DNA of 32,000 nt from Opitutia bacterium KCR 482 (lineage in GTDB: Bacteria; Verrucomicrobiota; Verrucomicrobiia; Opitutales; Intestinicryptomonadaceae), in assembly GCA_029269845.2 (NCBI GenBank), contig CP149973.1:1560001-1592000 (forward strand). The letters are read 5' to 3'. Below, piece by piece: positions 5,135 to 32,000 of the stretch. The translations under genes were made by a program, and so were the position numbers. How positions within the stretch are numbered: position 1 is the stretch's first letter; each line of letters begins with the position of its first letter. The notes beneath the pieces are model-generated. The model worked only from the letters and a program-made list of their open reading frames with translations. It was not told the DNA's origin and searched no databases.

Positions 5135-5153
5135 GAATAAATTAAAGTTTTGC

Positions 5154-5182: not shown

Positions 5183-5190
5183 GCCTTTTT

Positions 5191-5655: not shown

Positions 5656-5656
5656 G

Positions 5657-6502
5657 TTATTTTTTGCAGATTAAAAATCTTTCGCGCTTTGAGAGGTCGG
5701 GGAGGGCGCGGGCTTCCGAAAAGCCGAATTTTTCGACGGCCTCCCGCGCGAGGATTTGCGGCTGCCCAAGCCCGCATTCGCACGCGATGAATCCGCCGTC
5801 GAGCAGGTGCTCCCGCGCTTCGGATAGGATTTTCCTCAGGTCGCGTAGTCCGCCGTCGGGCGACGACAGCGCGGAGGGGGGGTCGTAGTTCCGCACTTCG
5901 GGCTGGGCTTCGCGCACTTCGGATTCGTCGAGGTAGGGCGGGTTCGCCAAAATCAGATTGTATGATTTTTTGATGTTTTCGAACCAGTCCGATTTTACGA
6001 TGTTTATTTTTAGTTTGAGCGATTCCGCGTTTTCGGCCGCGAGCGAAATTGCGGCGTCGGAAATTTCCGCCGCGTCGACCGACGCGTTCGGACACGCAGA
6101 CGCCATCGCCAGCGCGATTGCGCCCGACCCCGTGCCGAGGTCGAGAATTTCGGGCTTAGCGGAGGCGTCGGGGAGGAGTTTTTCGACCGCGATTTCGCAG
6201 AGCGTTTCGGTTTCGTGGCGCGGCACAAGGGCGCGGGCGTCGCATTTAAGCGTCAGCCCGAAGAAGTCTACCGAGCCTATTATGTGTTGCAGCGGCTCGC
6301 GCCTTGCGCGGCGTTTCGCCATTTCGCGGAAGGGCGCAAGCTTGGCTTCGGGGAGCGGCTCTTCGAAGCGCAGAAACAGTTCGAGCCTCTTGCAGCCGAG
6401 CGCGTGCGCAAGGAGCAGTTCGGCGTCGAGCTTGGGCGTCTCGATACCCTTTGCGGCGAAGTATCCCGCGCATTTTTGCAGAATTTCGAGAACGCTTTGC
6501 AC
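5657..6502 (-). CDS. prmC: Peptide chain release factor N(5)-glutamine methyltransferase
   Basis: 281 aa. It has the SAM-binding motif ILDLGTGSGAIAL and the catalytic NPPY motif (ILANPPYL). It lies immediately downstream of prfA, the conserved prfA-prmC synteny. Confidence 0.92.
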   Translation of the reverse strand: MQSVLEILQKCAGYFAAKGIETPKLDAELLLAHALGCKRLELFLRFEEPLPEAKLAPFREMAKRRARREPLQHIIGSVDFFGLTLKCDARALVPRHETETLCEIAVEKLLPDASAKPEILDLGTGSGAIALAMASACPNASVDAAEISDAAISLAAENAESLKLKINIVKSDWFENIKKSYNLILANPPYLDESEVREAQPEVRNYDPPSALSSPDGGLRDLRKILSEAREHLLDGGFIACECGLGQPQILAREAVEKFGFSEARALPDLSKRERFLICKK

Positions 6503-11505: not shown

Positions 11506-12636
11506 TTAAAGTTGTTTTACAAATTCCTTCGCCAAGTGCGATAGGAATTTCGGCGCCCTGTTTTGCGCCTCAACGAGGTTCGGGGCGAGGGGCAGAATCT
11601 GCCCGATTTTCGCGTTGGGGATTCCCATTTCGTCGATGTCCTTTTGCGAGAGCGTGGAAGAGCCGCAGAAAATCCACACGGGTTTTTTGTGTTTCGCCGC
11701 GAGTTTCGCGAGCGCGTACGGGCCTTTGCCCTGCTTGTCGGTCGCGTCGAAGACGCCTTCGCCCGTGATTACGATGTTCGAGTTTTTCACCGCCGTTTCG
11801 AGGTCGGCGTATTTTGCGAACAGCTCGAAGCCGCTCACGCGCTTGGCGTTTAGAAAGGTCATCAAACCGTATCCGCAGCCGCCCGCCGAGCCTGCGCCCG
11901 CCTGTTCGTGCGCGCTTTTGCCGACGCATTTTTTTGCGACTTCCGTGAGGCGTTTCATGTTCCGTTCGAGAGCCTCCGCCTGTTCTTTCGTCGCGCCCTT
12001 TTGTTCTGCGTAGGCGAGAGCCGCGCCCGTCTTGCCGAGCAGCGGGTTGCCGACGTCGGTCGCAACGACGAACTTTGTTGAAAACTTCTTTTCGGGCGGC
12101 ACGATTTTATCGAGCTTCGCAAGCCCCTCGCCAGTCGGTTCGATGTCTTTGCCGTCCTTGTCCAAAAATTTGAAGCCGAGGGGAATGAGAAGCCCTATGC
12201 CGCCGTCGTTTGTCGCGCTTCCGCCGACGCCCACGATAATCGTTTTGTAGCCGCGTTCGACGAGTTTTTCGAGAATCTGTCCCGAACCTATGTTCGTAAG
12301 CTTTGCGGGGTTGCGCTCCTGCTCCGAAACGAGGTTGATTCCCGACGCCTCCGTAAGCCCTACAAGAGCCGTGGATTCGTCAAGCAGGGCGCATTTTGCC
12401 GTGAGCACCTGCCCCGTGGGGTCGATAGTTTTGAGCCTTATGACCTTAGAGCCTTTTATTGCCTTCGAAACTGTGTCTACAAAGCCGTCGCCGCCGTCGG
12501 TGAGCGTGTATTCGGAAATCTGGGCGTCTTTCGATTCGGCGAGAATCCCCATTTTTATGGCGTGCGCAGCCTGACTCGCCGAGAGCGAGCCGCGGAATTT
12601 ATCGGGTGCTACCAAGAATTTCAGTGTTTTGCTCAT
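11506..12636 (-). CDS. Glycerate kinase (GlxK/GarK family)
   Basis: 376 aa. It has LVAPDKFRGSLSASQAA near the N-terminus, TDGGDGFVD, and a C-terminal ITGEGVFDATDKQGKGP, all family hallmarks. Confidence 0.88.
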   Translation of the reverse strand: MSKTLKFLVAPDKFRGSLSASQAAHAIKMGILAESKDAQISEYTLTDGGDGFVDTVSKAIKGSKVIRLKTIDPTGQVLTAKCALLDESTALVGLTEASGINLVSEQERNPAKLTNIGSGQILEKLVERGYKTIIVGVGGSATNDGGIGLLIPLGFKFLDKDGKDIEPTGEGLAKLDKIVPPEKKFSTKFVVATDVGNPLLGKTGAALAYAEQKGATKEQAEALERNMKRLTEVAKKCVGKSAHEQAGAGSAGGCGYGLMTFLNAKRVSGFELFAKYADLETAVKNSNIVITGEGVFDATDKQGKGPYALAKLAAKHKKPVWIFCGSSTLSQKDIDEMGIPNAKIGQILPLAPNLVEAQNRAPKFLSHLAKEFVKQL

Positions 12637-12897
12637 GATAAGTAATGCTGTAATTTTTTAGAATTATGGGAAATTCCAACTAACCGCCATTATTTCTATA
12701 ATTTCAAAAAAATCACTTAAAGGCAATTATTTTTTTATCCGCGCGGTCATTTTTTTGAACAAGCGGCGGTTGCTTCGCGTCTCCCCGCGCCGAATCGCGG
12801 GCAAAGCGACGGGGCGGGACGCGGATAAAGGGCGTCGCCGAATTTGCGCCGCCGTTTGGGTTTTCGTCTGTTTTTGTTTAAAAACTTTAAAATATGC

Positions 12898-12926
12898 TTG
12901 CAATCGGCGCGGGGCTTCCTATGAAT
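12898..12926 (+). promoter_or_regulatory. Candidate promoter of rhaA (near-leaderless)
   Basis: TTGCAA (12898-12903), a 17-nt spacer, ATGAAT (12921-12926), then 9 nt and the ATG at 12936. Confidence 0.35.
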
Positions 12927-12935
12927 TTTTGTCAT

Positions 12936-14186
12936 ATGGCAAACACTTATAAAGACGCAAAAGAACAGTACGCCAAGTTCGGGGTAGACACCGAAAAGGC
13001 GATTCAAATTCTCGATTCCATTCCGCTTTCCATGCACTGCTGGCAGGGCGACGACGTGTGCGGCTTCGAAACTCCCGACGCGGGTCTTTCGGGCGACGGC
13101 ATTCAGGCTACGGGCAACTACCCCGGCAAGGCTCGCAATCCCGACGAACTCCGCGCCGACATCGACGAAGCCGTAAAATATATCCCCGGAAAAATCCGTC
13201 TCAACCTACACGCAATCTACGGCGAATTCGGCGGCAAAAAGGTTGAGCGCAACAAAATCGGCTACGAAAATTTCAAGGGCTGGGTAGACTGGTGCAAGTC
13301 GCGCAAAATGGGCATAGACTTCAACCCGACGTATTTCTCGCACCCGCTCGTAAAAGACGGCATGACGCTTTCAAGCCCCGACAAGGGCGTGCGCCAGTAC
13401 TGGGTTGAGCACGGCATTGCGTGCCGCAAAATCGCCGAAAGAATCGGCAAGGAACTCGGCGACACCGTAATCACGAACTTCTGGATGCCCGACGGCATGA
13501 AGGACATGCCCGCCGACAGGCTCGCGCCCCGCGAACGCATGGCGGACTCTCTCGACAAGATTTTCAAGGTCAAAATCTCGAAGAAATACAACAAGGATTC
13601 CTTCGAAAGCAAGCTCTTCGGCATCGGCAGCGAAAGCTACGTCGTAGGCTCGCACGAATTCGTAATGGGCTATGCGGTAAAGAACGGCATTCTCATCACT
13701 TTCGACTCCGGGCACTTCCACCCGACCGAAACGATTGCCGACAAAATCTCCTCGGCTCTCCTTTTCGTCCCCGAACTCCTCCTGCACGTCTCTCGCGGCG
13801 TAAGGTGGGACAGCGACCACGTCGTGCTTTTCGACGACAACACCACGGCAATCATGCAGGAAATCGTCCGCACGAACGCAATCGACAAGGTGCACATCGG
13901 CATGGACTACTTCGACGCGTCGATTAACCGCATTTTCGCGTGGGCTCTCGGCATGCGCGCCGCCCGCAAAGCTCTGCTCTACGCTCTGCTCGAGCCCGTA
14001 GCGATGATGCGCAAGGCGGAAAACGACGTCGATTTCGGCATGCGCCTCGCCCTCATGGAGGAATCGCGCACGCTTCCGTTCGCCGACGTTTGGGCGGAAT
14101 ACTGCAAGCGCAGCGGCAAGCCCTGCGGCTTGAAGATGGTTGAAGGCATCAAGAAGTACGAACAGAAAGTGCTTTCGAAGCGTTAA
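12936..14186 (+). CDS. rhaA: L-rhamnose isomerase
   Basis: I prefer the start MANTYKDAKEQYAKFGVD...PLSMHCWQGDDVCGFE. This matches the conserved RhaA N-terminal SMHCWQGDD block at the expected distance from the N-terminus. The protein is ~416 aa with a TIM-barrel-like remainder (HFHPTE, WDSDHVV). Confidence 0.9.
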   Translation: MANTYKDAKEQYAKFGVDTEKAIQILDSIPLSMHCWQGDDVCGFETPDAGLSGDGIQATGNYPGKARNPDELRADIDEAVKYIPGKIRLNLHAIYGEFGGKKVERNKIGYENFKGWVDWCKSRKMGIDFNPTYFSHPLVKDGMTLSSPDKGVRQYWVEHGIACRKIAERIGKELGDTVITNFWMPDGMKDMPADRLAPRERMADSLDKIFKVKISKKYNKDSFESKLFGIGSESYVVGSHEFVMGYAVKNGILITFDSGHFHPTETIADKISSALLFVPELLLHVSRGVRWDSDHVVLFDDNTTAIMQEIVRTNAIDKVHIGMDYFDASINRIFAWALGMRAARKALLYALLEPVAMMRKAENDVDFGMRLALMEESRTLPFADVWAEYCKRSGKPCGLKMVEGIKKYEQKVLSKR

Positions 14187-15567: not shown

Positions 15568-17184
<1,617 letters not shown>

Positions 17185-19680: not shown

Positions 19681-19782
19681 AATGCTTGCGGAATTTCTGT
19701 TTTGCGGCGGTTCGGGGAAATAATCTTGTTGACTTATTCGCCCGCATTTTTAGCTTTTAAGAATAATTATACACGAGTTATT

Positions 19783-20538
19783 ATGAATAACATTAAAGTT
19801 GGAATTGTGGGCTGCGGTTTTATCGGCGGCGCATTGCGTAAATGGCTTGGAGAGCACAATAAAGACGTGGAAGTTTTTGTCTCCGACCCGCCGAAAGGCA
19901 TGAACGATTCTTTGGACTGCGTAGACGTCGTGTTTGTTTCCATTCACATTCCGACGGAAGCCGACGGCTCGCAAAATTTGTCTTTGCTCAAAGACATAAT
20001 CCGCGGACTGCCCGACAAGCCGATTTTTATCCGCACCACAATTCTTCCCGGAACAAGCGAAATGCTTTCGAAAGAGTGCGGCAAAAGCGTCTATTTCATG
20101 CCCGAATTTTTGACGGAACGCACGGCATACGAAGATTTCTCCCGCCAACCCATGGTATTTACCGCCGTCCCCGAATTGCTCGCCAAGATTTTCGTCGGCA
20201 AAAAATATATCGTGATGTCGTCGAAGGAGGCGGAAATTACAAAATACGCGCACAACGTGTTCGGCGCGTTGAAAGTCAGCTATTTCAACGGCATTTACGA
20301 CATTTGCAAAAAACTCGGTCTCAGCTACGAGAACGTTCAAAAAGGCGTGCTGCTAAGCGGCTATATAAACGAACCGCACACGCAAGTTCCAGGGCCAGAC
20401 GGAAAATTCGGCTACGGCGGAAAGTGCTTCCCGAAAGACGTCAACGCCTTTACCGAAATGTTTGCCGACTACCCGATACACGAGATTCTCAAATCTTTGA
20501 AACCCCTGAATATCCTGTTCAGAGGCGAGGATAAGTAG
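19783..20538 (+). CDS. UDP-glucose/GDP-mannose dehydrogenase-like NAD-binding protein, short form lacking the C-terminal nucleotide-sugar-binding domain
   Basis: The start MNNIKVGIVGCGFIGGAL provides the Rossmann motif. The central helical domain is SKEAEITKYAHNVFGALKVSYFNGIYDICKKLGLSYENV. The catalytic-Cys signature GYGGKCFPKDVNAF is present. The protein is only 251 aa, ending ~25 aa after that signature. Confidence 0.65.
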   Translation: MNNIKVGIVGCGFIGGALRKWLGEHNKDVEVFVSDPPKGMNDSLDCVDVVFVSIHIPTEADGSQNLSLLKDIIRGLPDKPIFIRTTILPGTSEMLSKECGKSVYFMPEFLTERTAYEDFSRQPMVFTAVPELLAKIFVGKKYIVMSSKEAEITKYAHNVFGALKVSYFNGIYDICKKLGLSYENVQKGVLLSGYINEPHTQVPGPDGKFGYGGKCFPKDVNAFTEMFADYPIHEILKSLKPLNILFRGEDK

Positions 20539-20559
20539 CAGCTTTTGCCAATCGACGCC

Positions 20560-21717
20560 ATGAAAATTGTCCATCTTGTTTTGGGTGATAGGTTCAACGA
20601 CGGTTGGCTGTACCAGCATAACTTGCTTGCTCTTCAAAACCGTTTGGACGGGCACGAAGTGTCGATAATCACGGGCTGCAATTCCTATTCGACAAACGCG
20701 GGGAAAGAGGGCGAATGCCCCGCAGGGCGTTATGTCGATTCAAACGGAATAACGGTGATAAGAATGGCGCGTCCGAAGCTTGTTCCGCCGTTTTTGCATT
20801 ATTACAAAATCAGATATTACTCCGCATTGCCAAATATTTTGGAGGGCGAAAATCCGGATATAGTTTTCCTCCACGGCATTCAGACGTTTTCCCTAATTCC
20901 GCTTTCGAAATACGCAAAAAAACACCCGAACGTGCGCTTCTACGCGGACAACCACGCCGACGATTTCAACGTTTCCAAGAGCTTTGTCGGACGCCGCATT
21001 TTGCACGGAGTTGTCTACGCGCGGCTTTACAAATTGTTCGGCGGCTTTATCTCGAAGCTGTTTTATGTAACTCCCGAACGGCGCGATTTCCTCGTTTCCG
21101 TCTACGGGTTGGACGAAAAGAAAAACAAAATGGAGTTCCTGCCGCTCGGCGGGATTTCGTATTCCGATGAAAAGTACGCGGAAATTCGGAAATCGGAGCG
21201 CGAAAAATTGGGATTGCAGGACAGCGATGTAGCGTTTGTCCATTCGGGCAAACTCGAACCAAGAAAGCGCACGCTCGACGACATCAAGGCGTTTATCGAC
21301 GCCGACGCGCCGAATGCAAAACTGTTTCTGGCGGGAAGCATAACCGATTCCATTCGCGGAGAGTTTGAAAAATTGGTGGCATCGTCGGACAAGGTCGAAT
21401 ACCTCGGCTGGAAGACGCCCGACGAATTGAACAATCTGCTTTGCGGGTGCGACGTTCTTTTGCAAACGGGGTCGCAGTCGGTAATTTTCGAACAGGGCAT
21501 ATGCTTCGGAATGGCGGCGATTTTGGACAGGGCGGACAACAACAAGTTTTTGCTTTCCGACGGGAACGGAATTTTTGCGGACAACCACGACGAAACCGTA
21601 TCGGCAATCCGCAAATTAAGTTCTTCTCCCGCAATGCTTGCCGATATGAAGCAAAAATCGAAGGTATTTTCGAAACGCGAACTGCTTTATTCCTCACTTG
21701 TTAAAAAATTTTATTGA
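20560..21717 (+). CDS. Glycosyltransferase (GT-B fold, GT4-like)
   Basis: The start MKIVHLVLGD...DGHEVSIITG is a typical GT-B N-terminus. The C-terminal half (FVHSGKLEPRKR...LFLAGS...YLGW...LL..CDVLLQTGSQSVIFEQ) resembles the GT1/GT4 donor-binding domain, but with a degenerate EX7E motif. Confidence 0.6.
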   Translation: MKIVHLVLGDRFNDGWLYQHNLLALQNRLDGHEVSIITGCNSYSTNAGKEGECPAGRYVDSNGITVIRMARPKLVPPFLHYYKIRYYSALPNILEGENPDIVFLHGIQTFSLIPLSKYAKKHPNVRFYADNHADDFNVSKSFVGRRILHGVVYARLYKLFGGFISKLFYVTPERRDFLVSVYGLDEKKNKMEFLPLGGISYSDEKYAEIRKSEREKLGLQDSDVAFVHSGKLEPRKRTLDDIKAFIDADAPNAKLFLAGSITDSIRGEFEKLVASSDKVEYLGWKTPDELNNLLCGCDVLLQTGSQSVIFEQGICFGMAAILDRADNNKFLLSDGNGIFADNHDETVSAIRKLSSSPAMLADMKQKSKVFSKRELLYSSLVKKFY

Positions 21718-21749
21718 TTTTTATCATTTTTTAGGCGGTTTTTTTTTTC

Positions 21750-22913
21750 ATGAACATTTTGTTTTGCCAAAAATTTTTCAACCCATCAAAAGGCGGAATT
21801 GGAAAAGTCACTTGGGTTTTAATTCGCGCATTTAGACGATTGGGTATTAATGTTCATGTAATAGCGATAAAAAATACAGGTTATTTCGGGGAAAACGTCG
21901 TGTTTATGCCGTCGGGCAATTTCGACGATTCTTCCGAAAACAAATCATTTCTATCGAATTTCATTCGAGAAAACTCCATTGATGTTTTGATAAATCAGGA
22001 AGGTTTGGGGCGATATGGCTTTGATTTATTTCGCAAGGTATGTGCAAACAAATGCGCATTGGTGTCTGTTGTGCATTCCCAACCTTTGGGAGCTGTAAAG
22101 AATTTTATATATTCCAAACGCCTGAAATTCCAAAAATACAAGCTTGTTTGGCTTCTAAATTTGCTGTGGGTTCGCCCGCTTAGGGATATTGTTGTTTTTC
22201 TCTATAAGTTAAAATATGTCGGGCATTTTAGAAAGCTGTGTGAGTTTTCCGACAGGGTTGTGTTGTTGTCCGAGCTTCACAAGTCGGATATTGTAGAGTA
22301 TTTGGGCAGATGTCCCGACAATGTGGTCGCAATTCCGAACCCAATCGATATTTCCGAGCCAGCTTTGAACTGCAAAAAAAAGAAACAGGTTTTGTGGGTA
22401 GGCCGTGTCGATTCGGGGAAGCGTCTCGACGTATTTATAAAAATTTGGGAACGTTTGTATTCGGAATTTCCGGACTGGGAGGCGTTTGTTTTGGGCGACG
22501 GAGTGTGTCTGCCCGCGCAGAAAGAGTATGTGCAAAATCGGAAAATTCCGCGCGTGAACTTTATGGGGTTTCAGCCGTCTAAAAAATATTTTGACGAATC
22601 CGAAATTTATTGCGCAACGACGTCGTTCGAGGGCTTCGGCATGACAATTCTCGAAGCGGTTTTGGCAAAGTGCGTTCCCGTTGCATTTAGGACGTTCGAT
22701 TCCATTGAAGATTTGATTTTGGACGGGAAAAACGGCTTTCTTGTCCCGCCTTACGACATTGAAAAGTATGTCGGCACAATGCGCCGCCTCATGTCGGACT
22801 CCGAGTTGCGGGAATCTTTGCGCAAGAACATGGAATGCGTTTCAAACCGTTTCGACTCGGACGCCATTGCAAAAAGATGGTTCGATTTGTTGTCGCAAAT
22901 CGTTAAGCGTTAG
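21750..22913 (+). CDS. Glycosyltransferase family 4
   Basis: 387 aa, starting MNILFCQKFFNPSKGGIGKV. The C-terminal domain has VLWVGRVDSGKRLD...LGDG...TTSFEGFGMTILEAVLAKCVPVAF (EX7E region). The gene is low in GC. Confidence 0.8.
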   Translation: MNILFCQKFFNPSKGGIGKVTWVLIRAFRRLGINVHVIAIKNTGYFGENVVFMPSGNFDDSSENKSFLSNFIRENSIDVLINQEGLGRYGFDLFRKVCANKCALVSVVHSQPLGAVKNFIYSKRLKFQKYKLVWLLNLLWVRPLRDIVVFLYKLKYVGHFRKLCEFSDRVVLLSELHKSDIVEYLGRCPDNVVAIPNPIDISEPALNCKKKKQVLWVGRVDSGKRLDVFIKIWERLYSEFPDWEAFVLGDGVCLPAQKEYVQNRKIPRVNFMGFQPSKKYFDESEIYCATTSFEGFGMTILEAVLAKCVPVAFRTFDSIEDLILDGKNGFLVPPYDIEKYVGTMRRLMSDSELRESLRKNMECVSNRFDSDAIAKRWFDLLSQIVKR

Positions 22914-24207
22914 GTCCGAAAAGCCTTTTTGTTTTGGAGATAATTACCAAGACTATCATCATCAACGTAGCATCTTTTGTTCTGATGGTGAACAAGCCGC
23001 CTGCGATAATGTCGTACAACAGGTACAGCATTGCAAACAATGCCACCCAATATTCGGGGTATAATTCTTTGTGCCTTATTATATAAAATGTTTTAAGCCC
23101 CGCATAGGCGATAATCCAAATGAAAAATGCGCCTCCGATTATTCCGAAAAGTGCCAATGCGTCAATTATCGCAGTGTGGTATCCTGTAAGGGGGCTGACT
23201 GTTAATGTGAAATCTATCGTCGGTGTCCCCAATATAGGGCTTGATTTAAATTTGTCCCAGCCGGCCATGGCGATAATCGTGTGGGGGTTGTTGCCCGTAT
23301 CCTCTATGAGTGCTTCCATTCTGTTTGCCGCAAATTGCGAAACTGTTGCGATAACTGAGACAATTGCGTGTTTGCAAATGTATGCTAAACCGCCCAAAAG
23401 TCCGACTCCCGCAAGTGCAAGTACGAAATTTTTGAAAAATGACGCAAAAAATATGATTGTGCAAATAAGCAAAACCACGATAGGCGAGCGGCTTCCCGAA
23501 AAAACCGTGATATAAAAGCCGAGAATTACTCCCAACGCGGCGGGGATTTTCCATATAAATTTTATTCTTTTATTGAATATGAGGGCGAGGCTAAGAAGGC
23601 AGAGCGAAGCTCCGGCATACCCGAAGCTGATTGAATTCATGCCGACTGCAACGGACTGTCGTTGGCGCGATATATCTATTAAGAGGTCGGTATCGGCAGT
23701 GTGTGAAAATCCGAGAGGTTTGAGCATGCAGACAAACGCCAGCATTAATAAAATAAGGGGCAGCGCCTTTTTGAAGTCGATTTTATTGAACGTAATCCAT
23801 ATCGAAATTGCGCTGAAAAACGCGTACAAAGTAAAAAACCAAGTTCTTGTTGTATCCAAAAAGAACGGTTCGTTTACAATATTCACAAATACTTTTAAAA
23901 TATACGCTACGCAACAGCCGAACATTATATACATCGGCGTTGTTATTTTTTCCCTCGGGATTTCCTTTAAAAGGCATAATCCGCAAGCCGAAAAGAGCAC
24001 AGCAAGCGAGAAAATTCTGTACGGAATGGATATCGTTTGCGAGTTTGAAAAGCCGAGCAATGTCGAGAAAGACGCCGCAAATTCGTATCCGGGAAGCATG
24101 CAAAGCAGGTTTAAGATGCACACGAATACGGTGAAATCGAGTTTTCTTTCCGAGTGGAATATAGGTTCTGGTGTAAATTGATTCATTGGAAAATGGTGAT
24201 AGTTCAA
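22903..24207 (-). CDS. Polytopic membrane protein, O-antigen/EPS polymerase-like (Wzy family)
   Basis: 434 aa with roughly 10-12 hydrophobic helices and very low GC. It sits among the GT genes, as Wzy genes typically do. No strict motif was recognised, so the call rests on topology and context. Its 3' end overlaps the convergent GT gene by 11 nt. Confidence 0.5.
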   Translation of the reverse strand: MNYHHFPMNQFTPEPIFHSERKLDFTVFVCILNLLCMLPGYEFAASFSTLLGFSNSQTISIPYRIFSLAVLFSACGLCLLKEIPREKITTPMYIMFGCCVAYILKVFVNIVNEPFFLDTTRTWFFTLYAFFSAISIWITFNKIDFKKALPLILLMLAFVCMLKPLGFSHTADTDLLIDISRQRQSVAVGMNSISFGYAGASLCLLSLALIFNKRIKFIWKIPAALGVILGFYITVFSGSRSPIVVLLICTIIFFASFFKNFVLALAGVGLLGGLAYICKHAIVSVIATVSQFAANRMEALIEDTGNNPHTIIAMAGWDKFKSSPILGTPTIDFTLTVSPLTGYHTAIIDALALFGIIGGAFFIWIIAYAGLKTFYIIRHKELYPEYWVALFAMLYLLYDIIAGGLFTIRTKDATLMMIVLVIISKTKRLFGPNA

Positions 24208-24223
24208 AAAATCCGAACGGGTT

Positions 24224-25129
24224 TTATTTTACAAGCGATTTTCTGATATTTACGGCAACTTGTGTGATTCCCGTTTTGTTTAAAAATGCGCCGATATACG
24301 GCGTTCTATATGCCAGTCCATCGACAACTGCGAGTCCGTTCCGGAAGTTGAAAGTATGCAGTCCGTGTTTCCATTTTGCGTTGGACGGATATACGCGTTT
24401 GATTTCTTTAAAGCGGAAGAGTTTTCCGTCTTCTACTATTTGTTGAAATACAAGGCCTTTGCCGTATCCGTTGTTGCAGTCTTGGGCGGGGCGGACGATA
24501 TGTCCATTCCTCTTAAAGAACGCGCCGGCATTTCTTGCGCACCTGTCTTTGAAAGAGACTTCCCCTATCTTTTCATATTTGCCAAGCGGACGGTCGGATT
24601 CATATATGTTTAATATTTTCCCGTTCGGATCTGCGGAGGTTGTCGAGAAAATCAGGTTTCTACCGCCGAAGTTTTTGCAGTCCACGACGGCGTCTGTAAG
24701 CGGCTCTTGTAATAGTTCCGCAACTTTTACAAGTTTGTTCCTCTCCAACAGGTATGCTGAGAATGTTCCCGATTTACAATTTTCGGGCAGAATGTAAGTG
24801 TTGTCTTTGTCTCTAAGTATATAGGGGAAAGACAGGTGGGTGGGCAGTTCCAAAATGGGGAAAGAGTCCTCCAATTTGAAGCCTTTTTGTGAAACGGTAA
24901 GAAGGGATATAACTCCCTTCTTTTTTGAGTCGAACCACTCTTCGGCGAGTATTTTTATTAAATCTCCGTCTGCCGACAATATAAACGGGTCGGCATACCA
25001 TCTGTCTTTGCGGTTGTGTTTTAACCACGATACGGTTTCCCACTTCGGCATTTCGGTTTTGCCGTCGAATTGCAGAAAGCCGATGTTCCACTTTGTGTCG
25101 GTAAGGGTTCTTGCAATGTTTCTTAGCAT
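24224..25129 (-). CDS. Hypothetical protein (301 aa), possible GH43-like/GINT1_N-like beta-propeller, glycan-locus associated
   Basis: I prefer the start MLRNIARTLTDTKWNIGFL at 25129. The track's longer form is an Arg-rich extension that overlaps the upstream GT gene. The motif RWYADPFIL and a predicted beta-rich composition are notable. There is no signal peptide or TM. It is coupled to the upstream GT by a 7-nt overlap. Confidence 0.55.
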   Translation of the reverse strand: MLRNIARTLTDTKWNIGFLQFDGKTEMPKWETVSWLKHNRKDRWYADPFILSADGDLIKILAEEWFDSKKKGVISLLTVSQKGFKLEDSFPILELPTHLSFPYILRDKDNTYILPENCKSGTFSAYLLERNKLVKVAELLQEPLTDAVVDCKNFGGRNLIFSTTSADPNGKILNIYESDRPLGKYEKIGEVSFKDRCARNAGAFFKRNGHIVRPAQDCNNGYGKGLVFQQIVEDGKLFRFKEIKRVYPSNAKWKHGLHTFNFRNGLAVVDGLAYRTPYIGAFLNKTGITQVAVNIRKSLVK

Positions 25130-26352
25130 GGCTTTGCGGGGTTGACTTGCTCGATGAGGGCGGAGACTCGTTTTGTGATTATGTCGCGCGAGTATTCCGT
25201 CTCGGCGAGTTTTCTGGCGTTTATTCCCATCTCTTTGCATGTTTCGGGATTGTCCGCAAGAAAGGCGAAGTTGTCGGCGAACGCATCGGCGTCGTGCGGT
25301 TCGGAGAACAGCCCGCATTTGTTGTCTTTTACTCCGTTTTCGACAAATCCCTTCATGTTCGTAAGCATTGGCAGCCCCGCCGCCAGAAATTCGAAGTACT
25401 TGTTCGGAGAATTTCCGTAATGGAAGAGGGGGATGTCGCTATTGACCATTAGCCCGACGTCGCACTTTGCGGTTATTTCGGCAATCCGCGTTTTTGGCAT
25501 CGGCGGGTAGAACTTTACGTTGTCGAGATTTTCGGCTTTTGCGCGCCGCTCCAACTCGGGTTTTTCCCTGCCGTCTCCGATTAGGAGTATTGCGATGTCG
25601 GTTCTGCCTTTTTTCTTCAACGAAGCCGCAACGTCCAGCAAAAATCCGAGGTTGTTTACTTTGCCGTGCGCGCCCGCGAAAATCCCCGTAAAGAGGGAAT
25701 CGTCGAGTCCGTCGAGATTTTTTGCGCGGTCCGACGTCGGCACGAACTGCCCGATATTAGACATGTTCGGCGCGAGGATTATCGGCTTTGCCTTATTCCG
25801 CGTGCGCTTCTTCATAATATCGACCATTCCCGACGAAAGTCCGACAAGCCCGTCCGCCAGATTGTATGCGCCCAGCTCCAAAATTTTCATCGGAAGAATG
25901 AACAGCGGATTTTTCACACCCATTGCAATCGGGACGTCGGGCCACGGGTCGCGGATTTCGAATACGAACTTTTTTGACGGTCTGAATATTTTTGCAAGTA
26001 TTCCGGGGAATGCCGTCGAAATCGGTGTGCTTGTGGCAAAGAGTAGGTCGTATTTCTCGGTGAAGACAAGGGACGCGCTTCTGAGGGCGAATTTTGCGAA
26101 CGCGACGGCGCGTTTGAACAGCCCCATTTTGTTGTCGTACGGAATGTCGAACGCAATTATTTTCAGCCCGTTCACCGCTCCTTCGTATCTGCCCTTGGCG
26201 GTTTCTTTCAATGTGGAGAAGGCCTTGTCGTATGAACATACCATCGTGACATTGTGCCCTCTCGAAATCAACTCAGACGCGATTTCAAAAGACCGCGTTC
26301 CGCCCGCCTGATAGGGAAATTTGAAATACTGGTGGTAGTATAATATGTTCAT
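25123..26352 (-). CDS. Glycosyltransferase family 4 (WbuB-like)
   Basis: I prefer the start MNILYYHQYFKFPYQAGGTRSFEIASELISRGHNVTMV, the canonical WbuB-type N-terminus. The C-terminal domain reads LLIGDGREKPELE...FYPPMPK...CDVGL.... Confidence 0.82.
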   Translation of the reverse strand: MNILYYHQYFKFPYQAGGTRSFEIASELISRGHNVTMVCSYDKAFSTLKETAKGRYEGAVNGLKIIAFDIPYDNKMGLFKRAVAFAKFALRSASLVFTEKYDLLFATSTPISTAFPGILAKIFRPSKKFVFEIRDPWPDVPIAMGVKNPLFILPMKILELGAYNLADGLVGLSSGMVDIMKKRTRNKAKPIILAPNMSNIGQFVPTSDRAKNLDGLDDSLFTGIFAGAHGKVNNLGFLLDVAASLKKKGRTDIAILLIGDGREKPELERRAKAENLDNVKFYPPMPKTRIAEITAKCDVGLMVNSDIPLFHYGNSPNKYFEFLAAGLPMLTNMKGFVENGVKDNKCGLFSEPHDADAFADNFAFLADNPETCKEMGINARKLAETEYSRDIITKRVSALIEQVNPAKPC

Positions 26353-26359
26353 TCCCCCG

Positions 26360-26388
26360 AATCTTTCCATTTTGTCCGATGTTCGCAA
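26360..26388 (-). promoter_or_regulatory. Candidate leaderless-type promoter of the GT4-hypothetical-Wzy operon
   Basis: The minus strand reads TTGCGA (26388-26383), a 17-nt spacer, AAGATT (26365-26360), then 7 nt (cggggga) and the ATG (26352-26350). Confidence 0.35.
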
Positions 26389-26442
26389 GGAAATAAGTTG
26401 TTGTTGCTTGACAATGAACGCGGTATTTTTTTCGCTAGCGGC

Positions 26443-27798
26443 ATGAATTTGTCGACGGGAGATTCGTTGAATGCGTACGAAAAATGCGGTGTTTGCTTGC
26501 TATGCTTCGCAGTGCTTGCTTCGACATGGTGCGCGTCGGGCACGCGTCCGGAATTTCTGATGCCGATACTGGCGGCTTCGATGCTTGCGGGGTTCATTCC
26601 CATGCTTTTTTGCCGGCATTTTCGGGGAAACAAAGGCGGGGTTGCGCTGTTTATGTTTTTTTTGCTTATGATTGTCGGGCTATTTCAGCCGTTCAATCAT
26701 TGGGGAGTTTTTCATCGCAACGAATTCGGTTCGTTTGTAAAGCCGTGTGCGTATTTGCCTTTTTTGCCTGCTTCCGTAGATGCGCCGTTTCGGGAGGGAA
26801 ACCCGTTTTCGGCTCTTGCAAGAATCGTGATTCTGACTTCCGTGTTTGCGGGAGCCCGCTTGGTATATTCGGCGCCGAAAGCGTTGCGGTACGTTTTGGC
26901 TTTCTTCTGTCTCAACGGTGTTGCGATGTCCGTGTTTGCGGTTTTGCAAAAATATTGCGGGGTTCAGGCTATGTACGGCGTTTTGTATTCTGCGTCCGAG
27001 ATGTACGGAACTTTTTTTCTCTCGAATGCCGCCGCCGCATATTTGGTCTTGGCGATGTCCGCCAATTTTGCGATGTCGTTGGAGTGTTTTCGTCGGGGCA
27101 GCGTTGCTTCCGCGGCATTGTACTTTGCGGGAGCTGCGATTTGCGGCGTCGGCGCATGGTATTCCGAGAGTACGTTCGGTTTTGTCTCCGCGCTTGCGGT
27201 GTCGTCGCTGTTTGTTTTGATTTGCTTTTATTGCGCTTTGAAGAAGATTGTCGGCAATGTCTCTGTTTCGTCCGCGATAACGTTGGTAGTTGCCTCGCTC
27301 TGCGTCGCCATTGCATGGGGATACTCCGAAAGTGTCGGTGCCGAAAAATTAATATCGGAAAATGGGGGGTATTGCGACAGAATGTTGTTTTATCGTGAAA
27401 CTGCGGGGTTTATCGCAAAAGCCCCCGTTTGGGGCTACGGCGGCGATTGTCTGCGCTACAAGCTTGCGCCGAGAATCGTCGAGTTGCAAAAGAAGTCGGG
27501 AAAAATTTCATACTCGGCTCCCGTGCACGCGCATAGCGATGTCTTGGAGCTTGTTGCCGAATACGGGGTTGTAGGCGCACTTTTTGTGGCCATTGCGCTT
27601 GTCTCCGTGCTTGCGGACGCGCTCTGCAACCGGCGCAATTTTAGTGCGGTAAATATGGTTGTCGTTGCGGGGCTTTTTGTATTTTTTGCGCATTCGGCGT
27701 TTGATATGAACATGTTGATTCCTTCGAATGTTGCGGCGTTTGCATTGCTGTTGCCGGTTTGCTTCTCGCGATTCGACGGAAAGGAGCCGCGCAGATGA
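26443..27798 (+). CDS. O-antigen ligase family (Wzy_C domain) polytopic membrane protein; possible exosortase-associated O-glycosylation ligase
   Basis: It is polytopic. The Wzy_C signature region is PVWGYGGDCLRY...APVHAHSDVLELVAEYGVVGALFVAIAL. The start is uncertain: ATG 26443 is preferred, and the track's non-ATG start at 26398 is possible. Confidence 0.75.
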   Translation: MNLSTGDSLNAYEKCGVCLLCFAVLASTWCASGTRPEFLMPILAASMLAGFIPMLFCRHFRGNKGGVALFMFFLLMIVGLFQPFNHWGVFHRNEFGSFVKPCAYLPFLPASVDAPFREGNPFSALARIVILTSVFAGARLVYSAPKALRYVLAFFCLNGVAMSVFAVLQKYCGVQAMYGVLYSASEMYGTFFLSNAAAAYLVLAMSANFAMSLECFRRGSVASAALYFAGAAICGVGAWYSESTFGFVSALAVSSLFVLICFYCALKKIVGNVSVSSAITLVVASLCVAIAWGYSESVGAEKLISENGGYCDRMLFYRETAGFIAKAPVWGYGGDCLRYKLAPRIVELQKKSGKISYSAPVHAHSDVLELVAEYGVVGALFVAIALVSVLADALCNRRNFSAVNMVVVAGLFVFFAHSAFDMNMLIPSNVAAFALLLPVCFSRFDGKEPRR

Positions 27799-28877
27799 AA
27801 AAATTTTTCGGAGTATTCGGGGCGGTACTTATTTTGCTTGCCGGCGCATTTGCCGCGTTCGACTGCTTGAATTGTCCCGATACCGACAGCGACATTGCGC
27901 GTGCCGTTCTTTGCGAAAAGCTTGCGGACGGCGGAAATTACGACGCGCTAAAATCGCAAATCGGGAAAATTCACGATGCGGAAATTCGGTGCGAACTCAA
28001 TGCCGTGTATTCGGCATGCATCGGAGAAACGCCTTCGGAGTTTTCGGCTTCCGATGTGTATAAATTCTGGCGCATAAAAAAGCACCCCGCGCTTTCGAAG
28101 CGGGGCGAGTTTTACGGGCTTGTTGCGGAGGCTTCGACTATTTCGAATGGGGGTTTGCGGGCGCGCGCGATGCTCGAAATCGCCCGCTTGTCTAAGCCTG
28201 TGGTGTCGCGGCGGGAATTCGAAACCGTTTGTCAAAACGCGTTGTTTTTGCTGTCCAAATTGCGCTCGCCCGCTTTTGATATTGATAAAATCGAATGCTG
28301 CAAACTTTTGCTGACGATGGACGAGCCGTCGCTGCTTTCCGATTTTATTCCTCTGTTGGTGTTGGATTCAAATTCCGCGCTTTTTATTTACGGCGCAATT
28401 TCGAGCGATTCCGTAGTTGCGGAATATAAAAAGAAGATGAAATCGAAGACTGCAGATAGGAGGTTGAAAATGCGTTTGCGCTATGCCGTATATGCCGCTG
28501 AAAAAGGCGCGACGGATTCATACAAGGATATAGAAAAATTTTTATACTATATCCGCGCCGATTTTGGTTTTTCTTGGCGCATAAAAAACGAGCCGGCGTA
28601 CAAGTATCCTGCGATTGCCTTTCTGATGAAAAAATGCGGGAACGAAGCCGCGTATTCCAAATACAGAAATCTGTCATTGTCGGAATCCCAATTAAAAGAC
28701 ATGGCGGGCGGGTACGAGAATTACATAACCTATGCCGTCTCGGTTTTTGCCGAATGCGGAGACTATTCCGCCGCCGCCCGACTACTCGATACGCTGTCGC
28801 CTGCAATGCGGGGCAGGGTTCTTAGGCGCACCGCAAGGCATTGGGATTGGCGGGAATTGGCTTCCGCCATTGATTAA
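27795..28877 (+). CDS. Hypothetical membrane-anchored protein (361 aa), mostly alpha-helical, function unknown
   Basis: The start MKKFFGVFGAVLILLAGAFAAF forms a single N-terminal TM. Its ATG overlaps the ligase stop (ATGA at 27795-27798). I recognise no motif. Confidence 0.6.
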   Translation: MKKFFGVFGAVLILLAGAFAAFDCLNCPDTDSDIARAVLCEKLADGGNYDALKSQIGKIHDAEIRCELNAVYSACIGETPSEFSASDVYKFWRIKKHPALSKRGEFYGLVAEASTISNGGLRARAMLEIARLSKPVVSRREFETVCQNALFLLSKLRSPAFDIDKIECCKLLLTMDEPSLLSDFIPLLVLDSNSALFIYGAISSDSVVAEYKKKMKSKTADRRLKMRLRYAVYAAEKGATDSYKDIEKFLYYIRADFGFSWRIKNEPAYKYPAIAFLMKKCGNEAAYSKYRNLSLSESQLKDMAGGYENYITYAVSVFAECGDYSAAARLLDTLSPAMRGRVLRRTARHWDWRELASAID

Positions 28878-29866
28878 TCCGTCTTGCGCTTGCCGTCTTC
28901 CCTGAATTCTTCGGGCACGGGGTTTATGTTGAGAATTTTGCCTATGAGCAAAAGCCCCGCCACAGTGCAACCCAAAATTACATAGCCCGCGGCGTCGTGT
29001 ACCGTGCCGCTTATTGAGTCGGGCCCGTTTTGATATGCCCAGAATGCGAGGAACAGCGCGCGGCACAGATTGAAAAAAAATGCCAGCGCCATTGATAAAA
29101 TTACGAGCGTGACTTTTTTCCACGTCTTTTCGAAAAACACCGCCGCCAGAAAGCTTCCCGCAAAAATGCATGCGGTTAGCGAGCGTATACCGCTGCATGC
29201 GTCGGCGACGCCGATGCTTCCGCTCGGAAATTGTATCGTGTTGCCGTGCAATTCCGCCGCGAAGCCCAGTCCTGTCATTATATTGAAGACCACTTTTGCA
29301 ACTATCGAAAGCAGAAAAAGGCTAACTCTGCTTTCCACAACCTGAAACAGCGGGGCTGCAATCAACCATATGAACGACGGGAAAACAAACATCGACACAA
29401 ACGCAAGCCTTTCCGACGTTTTCGGGCGCATGCCGGAATTGTCTTTGCCCGAAAGCAAATATGCCGACGCAAAAATTGTGAACGAGAGCGCGAACGTCAT
29501 TGTGAATCCAGGGACGCCGCGGTTTTGTGTGAGGTAAAAGAGGAACGCAAACGCCAAAAACGTGGCGATTCCGCATGCGAACATTCCGCCGAAGACGAAA
29601 TCCGCCGCAAGCGAAGCCGCTCCGCGAGGGGCGGATTTTCCCCTGCGTTTTTCAAAAAATTCGGCTATTTTCTCCTTTCTGTCGAACAGTACGTACAGGA
29701 CGAAAAGCGGGGTGAGGTATCCGAAAGAGTAGTCCTGCCGCTTGCTCCAAACGGGTATGAGAATTTTGCAGACCGATACCGCCATGAGCAAAAGCCCTGC
29801 GCCCGCAATTTTCACCTGCGCGGGAAGTGCCGAAAATGTAAACGGCTTTTGATTTCTGGATTCCAT
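28874..29866 (-). CDS. Exosortase family protein (EpsH/Xrt)
   Basis: 330 aa and polytopic. The conserved exosortase catalytic motifs are present: Cys in VADACSGIRSL, Arg in FFFNLCRALFL and His in GTVHDAAGY. Confidence 0.85.
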   Translation of the reverse strand: MESRNQKPFTFSALPAQVKIAGAGLLLMAVSVCKILIPVWSKRQDYSFGYLTPLFVLYVLFDRKEKIAEFFEKRRGKSAPRGAASLAADFVFGGMFACGIATFLAFAFLFYLTQNRGVPGFTMTFALSFTIFASAYLLSGKDNSGMRPKTSERLAFVSMFVFPSFIWLIAAPLFQVVESRVSLFLLSIVAKVVFNIMTGLGFAAELHGNTIQFPSGSIGVADACSGIRSLTACIFAGSFLAAVFFEKTWKKVTLVILSMALAFFFNLCRALFLAFWAYQNGPDSISGTVHDAAGYVILGCTVAGLLLIGKILNINPVPEEFREDGKRKTD

Positions 29867-29868
29867 TG

Positions 29869-30588
29869 TTATTCCTTGTTTTTTGGATAGAGAACCATTG
29901 TTCCCAGCTTGTCCAGCAGTTCGAGAAAGTCTTTGTTGTTTATGAAATTTTCAAGGGGATATTCGCTGTCTATTCTGACAAAAAACTGTTCGGGCGAGCC
30001 TGCGAGCGCGTCGGAGAACGCGTGCCCCAAGTAGGAAATCGGATTCGAAATCAAAGCGTCCTGCCCGTATTCGTAGCGTTTGCCGTCTACGATAAACCAA
30101 AACCACACATTGCGGTGGTAGGTGCTGAACTCGGTTTTGAAATCGTATTCGCGGTAGTAGGCGGGGAAAAGTTTGCCGTTTTTTGCCGACAGAAAGTAGT
30201 CGTGCTTCTTTTTGTCGTGAAGGTTTGTCCAGCCGTTTTCCACCCAACATCTGTCGGGTGTGTGTAGCGAAGCGTAGCGGACGTCGAGCTTGTTCGGCGC
30301 CCAGTACGAAATGTAGAGCTGGAATGTTTTGCCGTCGGGGAGCGTGTATTCGCGGTTGAGCCACTCCGTTACCGAGAGCAGGCGTTCCGAGGCTCTTACA
30401 ACTTCCTCCGTGCTGCCGAGCGGAAGGTCTTTCGACTTCGTTTGTCCGATTTCCGCGGGTATTGTCAGTTTGAGGTAGCCGTCGGGTTTTTTCTCGAAAT
30501 CGCGCGTGTTTCTTTCGAATTTCACCGACACGAAGAATACCCCGAGTATTCCCGCAATCAGCGTTATGATTCCCAAAAAATATTTCAT
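29869..30588 (-). CDS. epsI: Exosortase-associated EpsI family protein
   Basis: 239 aa with an N-terminal TM (MKYFLGIITLIAGILGVFFV). It has the EpsI hallmark HTPDRCWVENGW (H-x-P-x-x-C...GW). Its stop is 2 nt upstream of the exosortase start. Confidence 0.8.
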   Translation of the reverse strand: MKYFLGIITLIAGILGVFFVSVKFERNTRDFEKKPDGYLKLTIPAEIGQTKSKDLPLGSTEEVVRASERLLSVTEWLNREYTLPDGKTFQLYISYWAPNKLDVRYASLHTPDRCWVENGWTNLHDKKKHDYFLSAKNGKLFPAYYREYDFKTEFSTYHRNVWFWFIVDGKRYEYGQDALISNPISYLGHAFSDALAGSPEQFFVRIDSEYPLENFINNKDFLELLDKLGTMVLYPKNKE

Positions 30589-30607
30589 GGTTGTGTGATT
30601 TTGTGCT

Positions 30608-31333
30608 TTAAATTGTCCCGTTGTCGGCGTTGATTGTCTGCCCCGTGATTGCCGCCGCGCCGTCGGAGAGCAGGTAGGCTACCGTCTTTGCCACGGACTC
30701 CGCGCTTGTCGCGCTTTTGAGCGACGTTCTTGCGTAGATTTTCGCCCGCTGCTCCTCCGTTAGCGACGCGCTCATGTCGGTCTGCATGAAGCCCGCCGCA
30801 ACCGCGTTCGAGCGTATCCCGCGGACGCCCCATTCCCTTGCGGTGTTTTTCGAGAACGCCTCCAACGCGCCCTTGCTTGCCGCATACATCGCAAGTCCCT
30901 TGTAGCCCGTGTGCACGCTCACCGACGAAATGTGGACAATAGCTCCGCGCGTTCCGTGCAGAATCATGTTGCGGATTGCGCATTTCGCAAGAATCATCGG
31001 CGCGAACGTGTTGACTTCGAACATTGCGCGGAGCTTGTCGGCGTTCATGTTTGTGATGATGTCGTCGTAGGCGGTCGCGGCGTTGTTGACGAACGCGCCG
31101 AGGACGGTTTCGGGCGAGACGAAGTCGGCTGCGAAAATTGCGCGCCGAGCGGCGTCGGCGTCGGAGAGGTCCGCGCTTTTGAAGCGGAGTTTGTCGGGGA
31201 ATTGTTCGCCGAGTTTTTCCAGCGCGTCCGACTGCCTGCGGCTGACGGCGAAAACTTCGTCGCCCCGCGCAAGCAGCACTTCGCAAATTTTAAGCCCCAG
31301 TCCCCTCGACGCTCCCGTTAGAAGAATTTTCAT
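30608..31333 (-). CDS. Short-chain dehydrogenase/reductase (classical SDR, FabG-like)
   Basis: 241 aa. It has the cofactor motif TGASRGLG, NNAA, and the catalytic Ser...YAASK (YxxxK). Its start overlaps the upstream ligase stop (ATGA). Confidence 0.88.
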   Translation of the reverse strand: MKILLTGASRGLGLKICEVLLARGDEVFAVSRRQSDALEKLGEQFPDKLRFKSADLSDADAARRAIFAADFVSPETVLGAFVNNAATAYDDIITNMNADKLRAMFEVNTFAPMILAKCAIRNMILHGTRGAIVHISSVSVHTGYKGLAMYAASKGALEAFSKNTAREWGVRGIRSNAVAAGFMQTDMSASLTEEQRAKIYARTSLKSATSAESVAKTVAYLLSDGAAAITGQTINADNGTI

Positions 31334-32000
31334 GCGCGTTTTACCTTTCCAGTCCGCGTGGTTTCAAGTTTTTCGACGAATTTTACGATTCGCGGAATTT
31401 TGAATTGTTGCAATGATTCGGCAAGTTTTTTCCGCAGCGTCGGCTCGTCGATTTCCGCTCCGCGCTCGGCGACGATGTCGGCGCAGAGAATGTTGCCGAG
31501 AACCGAATTTTTTTTACCGAACACCGCGGCGTCGGCGATTCCCTCCACACCGCGCAGCGCGGCTTCGACCTCCGCGGGATTGACCTTGTAGCCCCCGACG
31601 TTCACCATGCCGTTTGCCCGCGCGACGATTCTGAATTTTGTCTTATCGGCGTCCGCCCATTCTATTTTGTCGCCCGTGCGGTAGAAGCCGTCGGCGTCGA
31701 AAGAAAAGCTTTCCGACGTTCCGAGAATGTCGCGGCGCAGGAGGATTTCGCCGTCGGAAATTTTCACGGAGTCCGCGATGTCGGGCGGAATCGAAAACGC
31801 GTCGCCGTCGCACGCGAAGAGCGCGCCCGCTTCGGTCGAAGCGTAGACGTTGTTGATTTTTGCCGACGGAAACATTTTTTCCACCCTGCGGCAGAGCGGC
31901 TCGTCAACGCGCTCGCCGCCGAAAGTCGCGCGGACGACGTTCGGAAATTCCGCACCAGCTCCCGCGAGCATGCGGTAAAAAGTGGGCGTCGCCGAGATGT
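31330..32000 (-). CDS. AMP-dependent synthetase/ligase (acyl-CoA/acyl-carrier ligase family), C-terminal ~223 aa; the N-terminus lies outside the window
   Basis: The reading frame stays open to the window edge (...ISATPTFYRMLAGAG...). The ANL-superfamily motifs YASTEAG (A5), YRTGD (A7), GGYKVNPAEVE (A8) and TRTGKVKR (A10) are present. Confidence 0.85.
   Translation of the reverse strand, partial: ISATPTFYRMLAGAGAEFPNVVRATFGGERVDEPLCRRVEKMFPSAKINNVYASTEAGALFACDGDAFSIPPDIADSVKISDGEILLRRDILGTSESFSFDADGFYRTGDKIEWADADKTKFRIVARANGMVNVGGYKVNPAEVEAALRGVEGIADAAVFGKKNSVLGNILCADIVAERGAEIDEPTLRKKLAESLQQFKIPRIVKFVEKLETTRTGKVKRA

Follow-up and report, generated by a model that had tools for sequence, protein, structure and literature searches.

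At one end of a 32,000-nucleotide stretch of contig CP149973.1 from Opitutia bacterium KCR 482 (hereafter the window, meaning this stretch at its full length), four closely packed minus-strand genes encode part of an adenylate-forming (AMP) ligase, a short-chain dehydrogenase/reductase (SDR), an EpsI-family protein and an exosortase. The original prediction, made from the sequence alone, had proposed these identities and had read the set as an acyl activation and reduction step tied to exosortase-mediated sorting or modification. The identities, the strand and the junctions are borne out by the open reading frames (ORFs), the sequence and family models. The ligase gene ends and the SDR gene begins within a shared ATGA at 31330-31333 (read from GCATGAAA), 19 nt separate the TAA of the SDR gene from the ATG of EpsI, and 2 nt (CA) separate the TAA of EpsI from the ATG of the exosortase.

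The start of this operon, expected to lie beyond nt 32000, is found about 1.5 kb further on in extended contigs from a metagenome collection (L001-L006, whose plus strand corresponds to the window minus strand). In these contigs, the full ligase gene ends at a window-equivalent position of about 32553, and the upstream extension contains an acyl carrier protein (ACP) of 76 aa and a polyprenyl-phosphate sugar-phosphate transferase of 210 aa (Table 1). We call this transferase PglC-like in size because its TIGR03025 match covers the C-terminal catalytic domain only. The operon order is thus sugar-phosphate transferase, ACP, ligase, SDR, EpsI, exosortase, and the six genes are probably co-transcribed, as they share one strand with junctions of -4 to 70 nt. 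Such tight spacing is usual in operons and is no statistical anomaly. Because the extended contigs show the transferase and ACP upstream and polysaccharide genes all around, the window's four genes are the tail of a six-gene operon inside a Wzx/Wzy-type locus.

Table 1. Genes of the operon and its neighbours, in window coordinates unless marked L001
Feature	Position	Strand	Remarks
Exosortase	28874-29866	minus	330 aa; WYJ06900.1 (Opitutia bacterium KCR 482), annotated 'exosortase/archaeosortase family protein'
Standalone EpsI	29869-30588	minus	239 aa; N-terminal membrane helix and alpha/beta domain
Classical SDR	30608-31333	minus	241 aa; third gene of the ACP-ligase-SDR cassette
ANL adenylate-forming ligase, C-terminal 222 residues of 407 aa	31330-32000	minus	second cassette gene; AMP-binding_C
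PglC-like Bac_transf transferase	L001 6388-7020	+ of L001 (= window minus)	210 aa; TIGR03025 240 bits
PP-binding ACP	L001 7091-7321	+ of L001 (= window minus)	76 aa; DSF serine motif
Full-length ligase	L001 7314-8537	+ of L001 (= window minus)	407 aa
SDR in extended contig	L001 8534-9259	+ of L001 (= window minus)	
Rest of Wzx/Wzy-type polysaccharide locus in window	19702-27798		Pfam: short UDPG-dehydrogenase-like ORF, three GT4 glycosyltransferases, GINT1_N protein, two Wzy_C-like polymerases
Convergent ORF	27759-28877	+	372 aa as listed, 360 aa as called; N-terminal hydrophobic segment; neighbour outside operon

The EpsI-exosortase pair

The exosortase scores well above the cutoffs of PF09721 (159.1 bits, cutoff 25.7) and TIGR04178 (62.7 bits, cutoff 23), which places it in the exosortase superfamily. 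It misses the general TIGR02602 model (87.8 vs 105.55) and stays below the curated cutoff of every named subclass tried (XrtA, B, C, D, M, N, O, T, V, W, X and the cyanoexosortases), the best scores being 86.2 against 208 for XrtA, 84.5 against 400 for XrtD, 79.7 against 425 for XrtW and 52.6 against 313 for XrtV. Placement by profile models, as the original prediction had suggested, therefore reaches the general family and no named subclass, and none with a documented ligase-SDR-EpsI neighbourhood takes the protein in. Its homologues all come from the class Opitutae, including gut 'uncultured Opitutales', Coraliomargarita sp. CAG:312, Ca. Merdousia, Opitutaceae, Puniceicoccaceae, Lacunisphaera, Rariglobus and Oleiharenicola. 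A relative is encoded in at least 541 stretches of a species-representative genome set, and the exact protein occurs in about 100 blocks of a metagenome collection, where assembly names suggest human-gut studies. Judged by sequence, the exosortase is a member of an unnamed, Opitutae-wide clade outside the named subclasses, a large group that lacks a curated subclass model. We found no homologous solved structure.

The residues expected of an active enzyme are retained. In an alignment of 20 family members (38-69% identity), A223-C224-S225-G226, N266..R269 and H290-D291..G294 are invariant, which supports the earlier view of a predicted catalytically intact core, and about 55 further positions besides the catalytic triad C224/R269/H290 are invariant across Opitutae.

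Its partner is more divergent. EpsI matches PF11984 (DUF3485/EpsI; 32.3, cutoff 26.1) and stays below TIGR02914 (17.9 vs 42.8), so that it qualifies for the family by the Pfam model only; a homologue carries the name 'exosortase-associated EpsI family protein'. On the XrtD model (TIGR04152), profile positions 89-242 are covered by the exosortase and 289-387 by EpsI. An alignment of EpsI homologues (A3) displays an invariant motif, H109-x-P111-D112-x-C114-W115. A structure model of high predicted confidence (pLDDT 89.4) gives an N-terminal membrane helix followed by an alpha/beta domain, with weak matches in the PDB (E 0.012-0.07; TM-scores of 0.27/0.38 for the best, at E 0.012) to DcrB, SciW/Eag-type chaperones, which bind transmembrane helices, LpqN and TiME. 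The modelled resemblance to transmembrane-helix-binding chaperones is a lead, not a result.

EpsI has been described as 'fused with or adjacent to' exosortase and without known function (Haft et al. 2006, PMC1569441). That it forms a separate gene upstream here, the reverse of both the prototype (PMC1569441) and the fusions, had been pointed out in the original prediction, and this order extends well beyond the window. The six-frame ORFs of 80 genome loci were queried with the proteins of the operon and with an iterated EpsI hidden Markov model (HMM). In 29 of the 30 gut-clade loci (45-69% exosortase identity; the exception is L034), EpsI immediately precedes the exosortase on the same strand, and the two genes overlap by 4 nt in L171 and 8 nt in L172, as annotated. 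The EpsI-before-exosortase order is thus a genuine, conserved, minor variant.

Within 10 kb of the exosortase in the 51 more distant loci, no EpsI was detected, and in these Opitutae the exosortase sits among housekeeping genes. Gut Opitutales thus keep the reversed order, and other Opitutae have no detectable EpsI. The Opitutaceae and Puniceicoccaceae loci L036-L086 and L173 (e.g. L173 6246-9011) share a conserved neighbourhood of a FabF-like KAS II, a small ORF and the exosortase, together with PhoH, an HD-domain membrane protein, HIT, an M16 peptidase and KdtA-like or GlgA-like genes; neither EpsI nor polysaccharide genes were found beside the exosortase in this set. One example is Oleiharenicola lentus, with TetR, FabF, a 119-aa ORF and the exosortase in a row and PhoH, the HD-domain membrane protein, the HIT protein and the M16 peptidase nearby.

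If the exosortase sorts proteins, its substrates should carry PEP-CTERM tails, and the original prediction had found none in the window. Scanning every stop-terminated ORF of at least 60 aa in the window, we likewise detected no C-terminal hydrophobic helix with a basic tail, a result that is ordinary rather than notable. Genomes encode multiple, dispersed PEP-CTERM proteins, and epsH homologues are nearly always found among exopolysaccharide genes (Haft et al. 2006, PMC1569441). Because substrates are dispersed in this way, and because relatives encode such tails, a missing substrate in 32 kb is unremarkable. The gut-clade loci L020 (22.8 bits) and L034 (21.8) encode tails positive for TIGR02595 (cutoff 16) no more than 10 kb from the exosortase, and further ones occur in L038 (22.4) and L068 (18.2), in the canonical form of VPEP, helix and basic residues. 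In L034, the sole gut-clade locus without EpsI, two paralogous proteins of about 600 aa are encoded just upstream of the exosortase (4466-6352 and its neighbour), at least one of which ends in a TIGR02595-positive PEP-CTERM tail.

An exosortase gene inside a polysaccharide locus, with no PEP-CTERM tail in the window or the 10 kb beyond, might also be read as non-sorting, that is, as acting on the polysaccharide pathway itself or as a relic, the genome in either case being devoid of substrates. We regard this as highly improbable. The catalytic triad and some 55 other positions are invariant across Opitutae, the recurrence of the exact protein across metagenome blocks argues for purifying selection, canonical tails stand beside the orthologous exosortase in gut-clade relatives, and the known dispersal of substrates leaves little weight to their absence here.

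The ACP-ligase-SDR cassette

The C-terminal part of the ligase matches AMP-binding_C (54 bits, cutoff 24.5), and the adenylation motifs TSGTTGxPK, YASTE, GD, GGYK and the C-terminal GK are invariant in its alignment (A2). The full-length protein falls far below TIGR03098 (99.9 vs 592.35), so that it is not the XrtA-associated acyl-CoA ligase. The SDR matches PF13561 (143.8 bits, cutoff 27) and PF00106 (134.1), carries TGxxxGxG and YxxxK (read from the sequence), and remains below the FabG equivalog TIGR01830 (161.5 vs 297.75), as befits a classical SDR and not the housekeeping FabG.

The ligase family consists of 403-408-aa proteins with more than 3,200 matches. For 84 ligase-family loci (80 from a metagenome scan and four look-ups; about 1.0 Mb, median GC 0.40), we asked how often the gene belongs to a cassette, defined as a PP-binding protein of about 75 aa, an ANL ligase of about 405 aa and an SDR of about 240 aa, in that order, with overlapping or near-zero junctions. 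This is the arrangement found in the operon, and the full pattern recurs at 76 of the 84 loci, most exceptions being cut by contig ends. An SDR lies directly downstream of the ligase in 83 and an ACP directly upstream in 77. By contrast, an exosortase or EpsI was detected at a single locus, L091, which derives from the window's own species (ligase 97% identical); HMM searches repeated without filters at E<=50, together with a search for the CSG motif, recovered no other among the 84. The three next-closest ligases likewise sit in a cassette without exosortase. Annotated exosortase-free cassettes (L087-L090, L174-L176 and a ligase-cluster member from Mediterranea sp. An20, of the Bacteroidales) have the same order and overlapping junctions, in many cases behind ACP-SDR-KASIII, and are situated in glycosyltransferase, pyruvyl-transferase or dTDP-sugar loci. 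Because the same overlapping junctions appear wherever the cassette occurs, the ATGA-type coupling of ligase and SDR is a property of the cassette, not of this locus.

The exosortase side gives the same picture. The cassette lies upstream of EpsI in the window species, L007 and L008, downstream of the exosortase in L035, and on the opposite strand, divergent, in L013 (and its near-copy L171); it is absent within 10 kb in the remaining 26 of the 30 gut-clade loci. Conservation of the complete ligase-SDR-EpsI-exosortase order, which the original prediction had singled out for comparison across relatives, therefore divides in two: the EpsI-exosortase part is kept almost throughout the gut clade, and the cassette keeps its upstream place only in L007 and L008, being moved or missing elsewhere. 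In L172, the pair is flanked by YidC, aconitase and a PMT-family transferase, and a polysaccharide cluster is missing altogether.

Comparison of L035 with the window species separates the histories of the two parts. ACP, ligase and SDR are 96/95/97% identical in protein (95.6% in DNA) and the Wzx segment 94%, whereas EpsI and exosortase are only 63/69% identical in protein (74.6% in DNA). From this difference, we conclude that polysaccharide genes have been exchanged around a resident EpsI-exosortase pair. The Wzx-like gene and the cassette (L035 158-1627 and 10996-12880; L001 1179-2649 and 7091-8975), at 94-96% DNA identity, indicate that parts of the polysaccharide locus were recently exchanged between species.

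These observations bear directly on the proposal that acyl activation and reduction are tied to the exosortase. It would make ligase and SDR, with the ACP, dedicated exosortase accessories, their activated and reduced acyl group serving as acceptor or as a modification of sorted proteins, by analogy with XrtA systems. The single strand, the short junctions and the probable co-transcription of the six genes fit this proposal, as does the presence of the cassette near EpsI-exosortase in five related species-level loci despite rearrangement, and the NCBIfam 'exosortase A system-associated' acyl-CoA ligase model provides a precedent for ligases in exosortase loci. We nevertheless consider it unlikely. 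The cassette is free of exosortase in 83 of 84 ligase-family loci and around the three next-closest ligases, most gut-clade exosortases lack a cassette within 10 kb (L172 lacks any polysaccharide genes), and the distant Opitutae orthologues lie among housekeeping genes. The separate histories seen in L035, the failure against TIGR03098 and the cassette's partners in relatives, a PglD-type sugar acyltransferase and KASIII, point the same way. Near exosortases, the cassette is optional and varies in position, and the proposed tie is not borne out.

A different question is whether the cassette serves the polysaccharide at all, or instead yields an acylated small metabolite or lipid of its own, its place in the locus being due to chance. 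In L176 (5582-12384), the triplet stands amid a FabD-like transacylase, ACP, two SDRs, KASIII and a metallo-beta-lactamase (MBL)-fold hydrolase, a compact set resembling type-II fatty-acid or polyketide synthases, and this content suggests that some cassette versions may build a longer hydroxyacyl chain. The absence of glycosyltransferases from view in L176, the few polysaccharide genes of L175 and the lack of a visible acceptor-sugar pathway at the window locus all accord with a separate metabolite. Against it, a PglC-like transferase accompanies the cassette in the window, L035 and L013 as well as in the metagenome loci L110, L141, L146, L156 and L157. In L008, two KASIII-ACP-SDR sets and a PglD_N+Hexapep acyltransferase precede the triplet; these partners recur in L013 and L171, and cassettes elsewhere lie within glycosyltransferase, pyruvyl-transferase or dTDP-sugar loci. 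A separate product is, on this evidence, quite unlikely.

The surrounding polysaccharide locus

Upstream and divergent of the operon are an ATP-grasp enzyme, a 159-aa protein, a pyridoxal-phosphate (PLP) enzyme, a pyruvyl transferase and a Wzx-like flippase, and the window's first 19.6 kb hold mainly housekeeping-type genes. The 159-aa protein (L001 4760-5239, minus), beside the ATP-grasp and PLP enzymes, gives a GNAT signal that falls short of the threshold (19.3 vs 20.7). In one rumen contig (L124 160-612), a homologue immediately precedes the ACP gene, and for this reason the 159-aa protein may be the cassette's acyltransferase. None of the locus transferases reaches the glycosyltransferase models of the XrtA/PEP-CTERM system (TIGR03013, 164.6/393; TIGR04063, 50.4/442; TIGR03088, 46.6/409). 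On the downstream side, the stops of the exosortase gene and the convergent ORF overlap as TTAA at 28874-28877; this ORF has no Pfam or NCBIfam match and is not kept beside the exosortase in relatives.

Between window positions 21000 and 25000, GC content drops to 0.43-0.45 from 0.55-0.60 on either side, which fits horizontal acquisition of the glycosyltransferase and polymerase genes. The two Wzy_C-like polymerase genes (window 26398-27798 and 22903-24207) differ between strains. The first is whole in the window and L001, whereas L002-L006 carry it in two pieces of 138 and 298 aa; the second is whole in L001 and L002 and replaced by ORFs of 151 and 138 aa in L003-L006 (the variable coordinates in L002-L006 are 12069-13365 and 15686-16964). 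Such variation points to polymerases being inactivated or replaced at the level of strains. At the edge of the locus, a UDP-glucose/GDP-mannose-dehydrogenase-like ORF (window 19702-20538) encodes 251-278 aa without the C-terminal domain and is probably a truncated gene, the homologue in L087 having a full length of 436 aa.

Two modules and their counterparts in known systems

Taken together, these findings make it probable that the operon consists of two independent modules, likely transcribed as one, that were juxtaposed in a recombining Wzx/Wzy-type polysaccharide locus of a gut bacterium. Gene content, gene order, conservation pattern and the independence of the modules are direct findings, and the arrangement is largely ordinary: known modules side by side. 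For their biochemistry, we infer the following steps from family membership and context. The first module, transferase plus cassette, would serve polysaccharide synthesis. Its ligase would adenylate a small carboxylic acid and load it onto the dedicated ACP, and the coupled SDR would reduce a keto group, for instance from 3-oxoacyl to 3-hydroxyacyl. An acyltransferase, PglD-type in relatives and here perhaps the weakly GNAT-like 159-aa protein, would then transfer the acyl group to a repeat-unit sugar, so that the product is probably an acyl decoration of the surface glycan. The second module, EpsI and exosortase, would be the lineage's resident protein-sorting pair. As in other members of the family, the Cys/Arg/His exosortase is predicted to cleave the C-terminal PEP-CTERM anchor of secreted proteins whose genes lie in other parts of the genome, with membrane-anchored EpsI as its putative accessory.

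Several observations weigh against this two-module interpretation. No PEP-CTERM protein of the window's species is seen in the 32-kb window or in the roughly 10 kb beyond it (L001). The ligase-family loci are mostly metagenome contigs, for which taxonomy is inferred from GC and one named member. In the approximately 42 kb read, neither an aminotransferase or dehydratase for an amino-sugar acceptor nor a clear acyltransferase is visible; with the GNAT signal below threshold, this makes the cassette's chemistry uncertain. A literature search returned no experimental paper on an ACP-ligase-SDR cassette. Finally, the cassette lies within 10 kb of EpsI-exosortase in five species-level loci (the window, L007, L008, L035 and L013) in four arrangements. 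Proximity that is kept despite rearrangement can indicate a functional link, and shared residence in the polysaccharide locus explains it as well.

That last observation leaves some room for a weaker form of the original proposal. A facultative link between cassette and EpsI-exosortase, resting on the repeated proximity in these five related loci, ranges for us from unlikely to very unlikely. Its specific form, in which the cassette of some gut Opitutales supplies a (hydroxy)acyl group to the exosortase's acceptor or to sorted PEP-CTERM proteins, is very unlikely; were it true, the repeated adjacency in four arrangements would reflect a biochemical link between polysaccharide acylation and protein anchoring. 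For the exosortase acceptor and the role of EpsI, a partner dedicated to acyl activation would have offered a helpful clue. What the evidence points to instead is a resident EpsI-exosortase pair with polysaccharide genes swapped around it.

Among known systems, the closest counterpart of the second module is the PEP-CTERM/exosortase (EpsH) system (PMC1569441), with XrtA (TIGR03109) as prototype. In both, a multi-pass membrane protein of the PF09721/TIGR04178 type with a Cys/Arg/His core is encoded among exopolysaccharide genes, and in relatives of the window locus TIGR02595 tails lie nearby. Unlike the prototype, the window exosortase fails XrtA, all other named subclasses and TIGR02602, and its clade is specific to Opitutae. 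No glycosyltransferase or ligase model of the XrtA system is reached at the window locus, and among the annotated ORFs we recognised none of the PrsK/PrsR/PrsT type. The tight pairing with EpsI resembles epsH-epsI of Methylobacillus sp. 12S and the XrtD-type fusions, in which a PF11984 protein is likewise encoded right beside the exosortase. In those cases, however, EpsI is downstream, or C-terminal in the fusions, whereas here it is a separate gene upstream and its sequence has diverged beyond the reach of TIGR02914. The XrtA-associated acyl-CoA ligase set (TIGR03098 and partners) similarly places an ANL ligase and an ACP beside an exosortase, but its ligase has about 517 aa as opposed to 407, its partners are a decarboxylase and hydrolases in place of a fixed SDR, and the window ligase family occurs almost wholly in exosortase-free loci.

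For the first module, precedents come from glycan and lipid acylation. In the Campylobacter pgl pathway, a PglD-type transferase N-acylates an amino sugar and a PglC-type transferase initiates synthesis, and in V. cholerae O1 perosamine is acylated by means of a dedicated ACP and ligase. PglD_N+Hexapep proteins flank the cassette in L008, L013 and L171, as in the pgl comparison; unlike it, the window's own locus has no visible PglD homologue, aminotransferase or dehydratase. In bacterial sphingolipid synthesis, a dedicated ACP with an acyl-CoA-synthetase-like loader is likewise reported (PMC9386255). Common to these systems is an adenylating enzyme that loads a dedicated carrier for the acylation of a surface glycan or lipid.

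The nearest relatives are the ACP-ligase-SDR triplets of capsule-type loci in gut and rumen bacteria, such as that of Mediterranea sp. An20. These triplets make up a very common and apparently uncharacterised capsule-locus cassette, whose product is worth determining. They have the same genes, order and overlapping junctions, with identities of 46-48% to the window ligase, about 50% to its ACP and 61-68% to its SDR. The Bacteroidales-type triplet usually has a KASIII and a further ACP and SDR upstream, whereas the window carries the minimal triplet, placed behind a PglC-like transferase.

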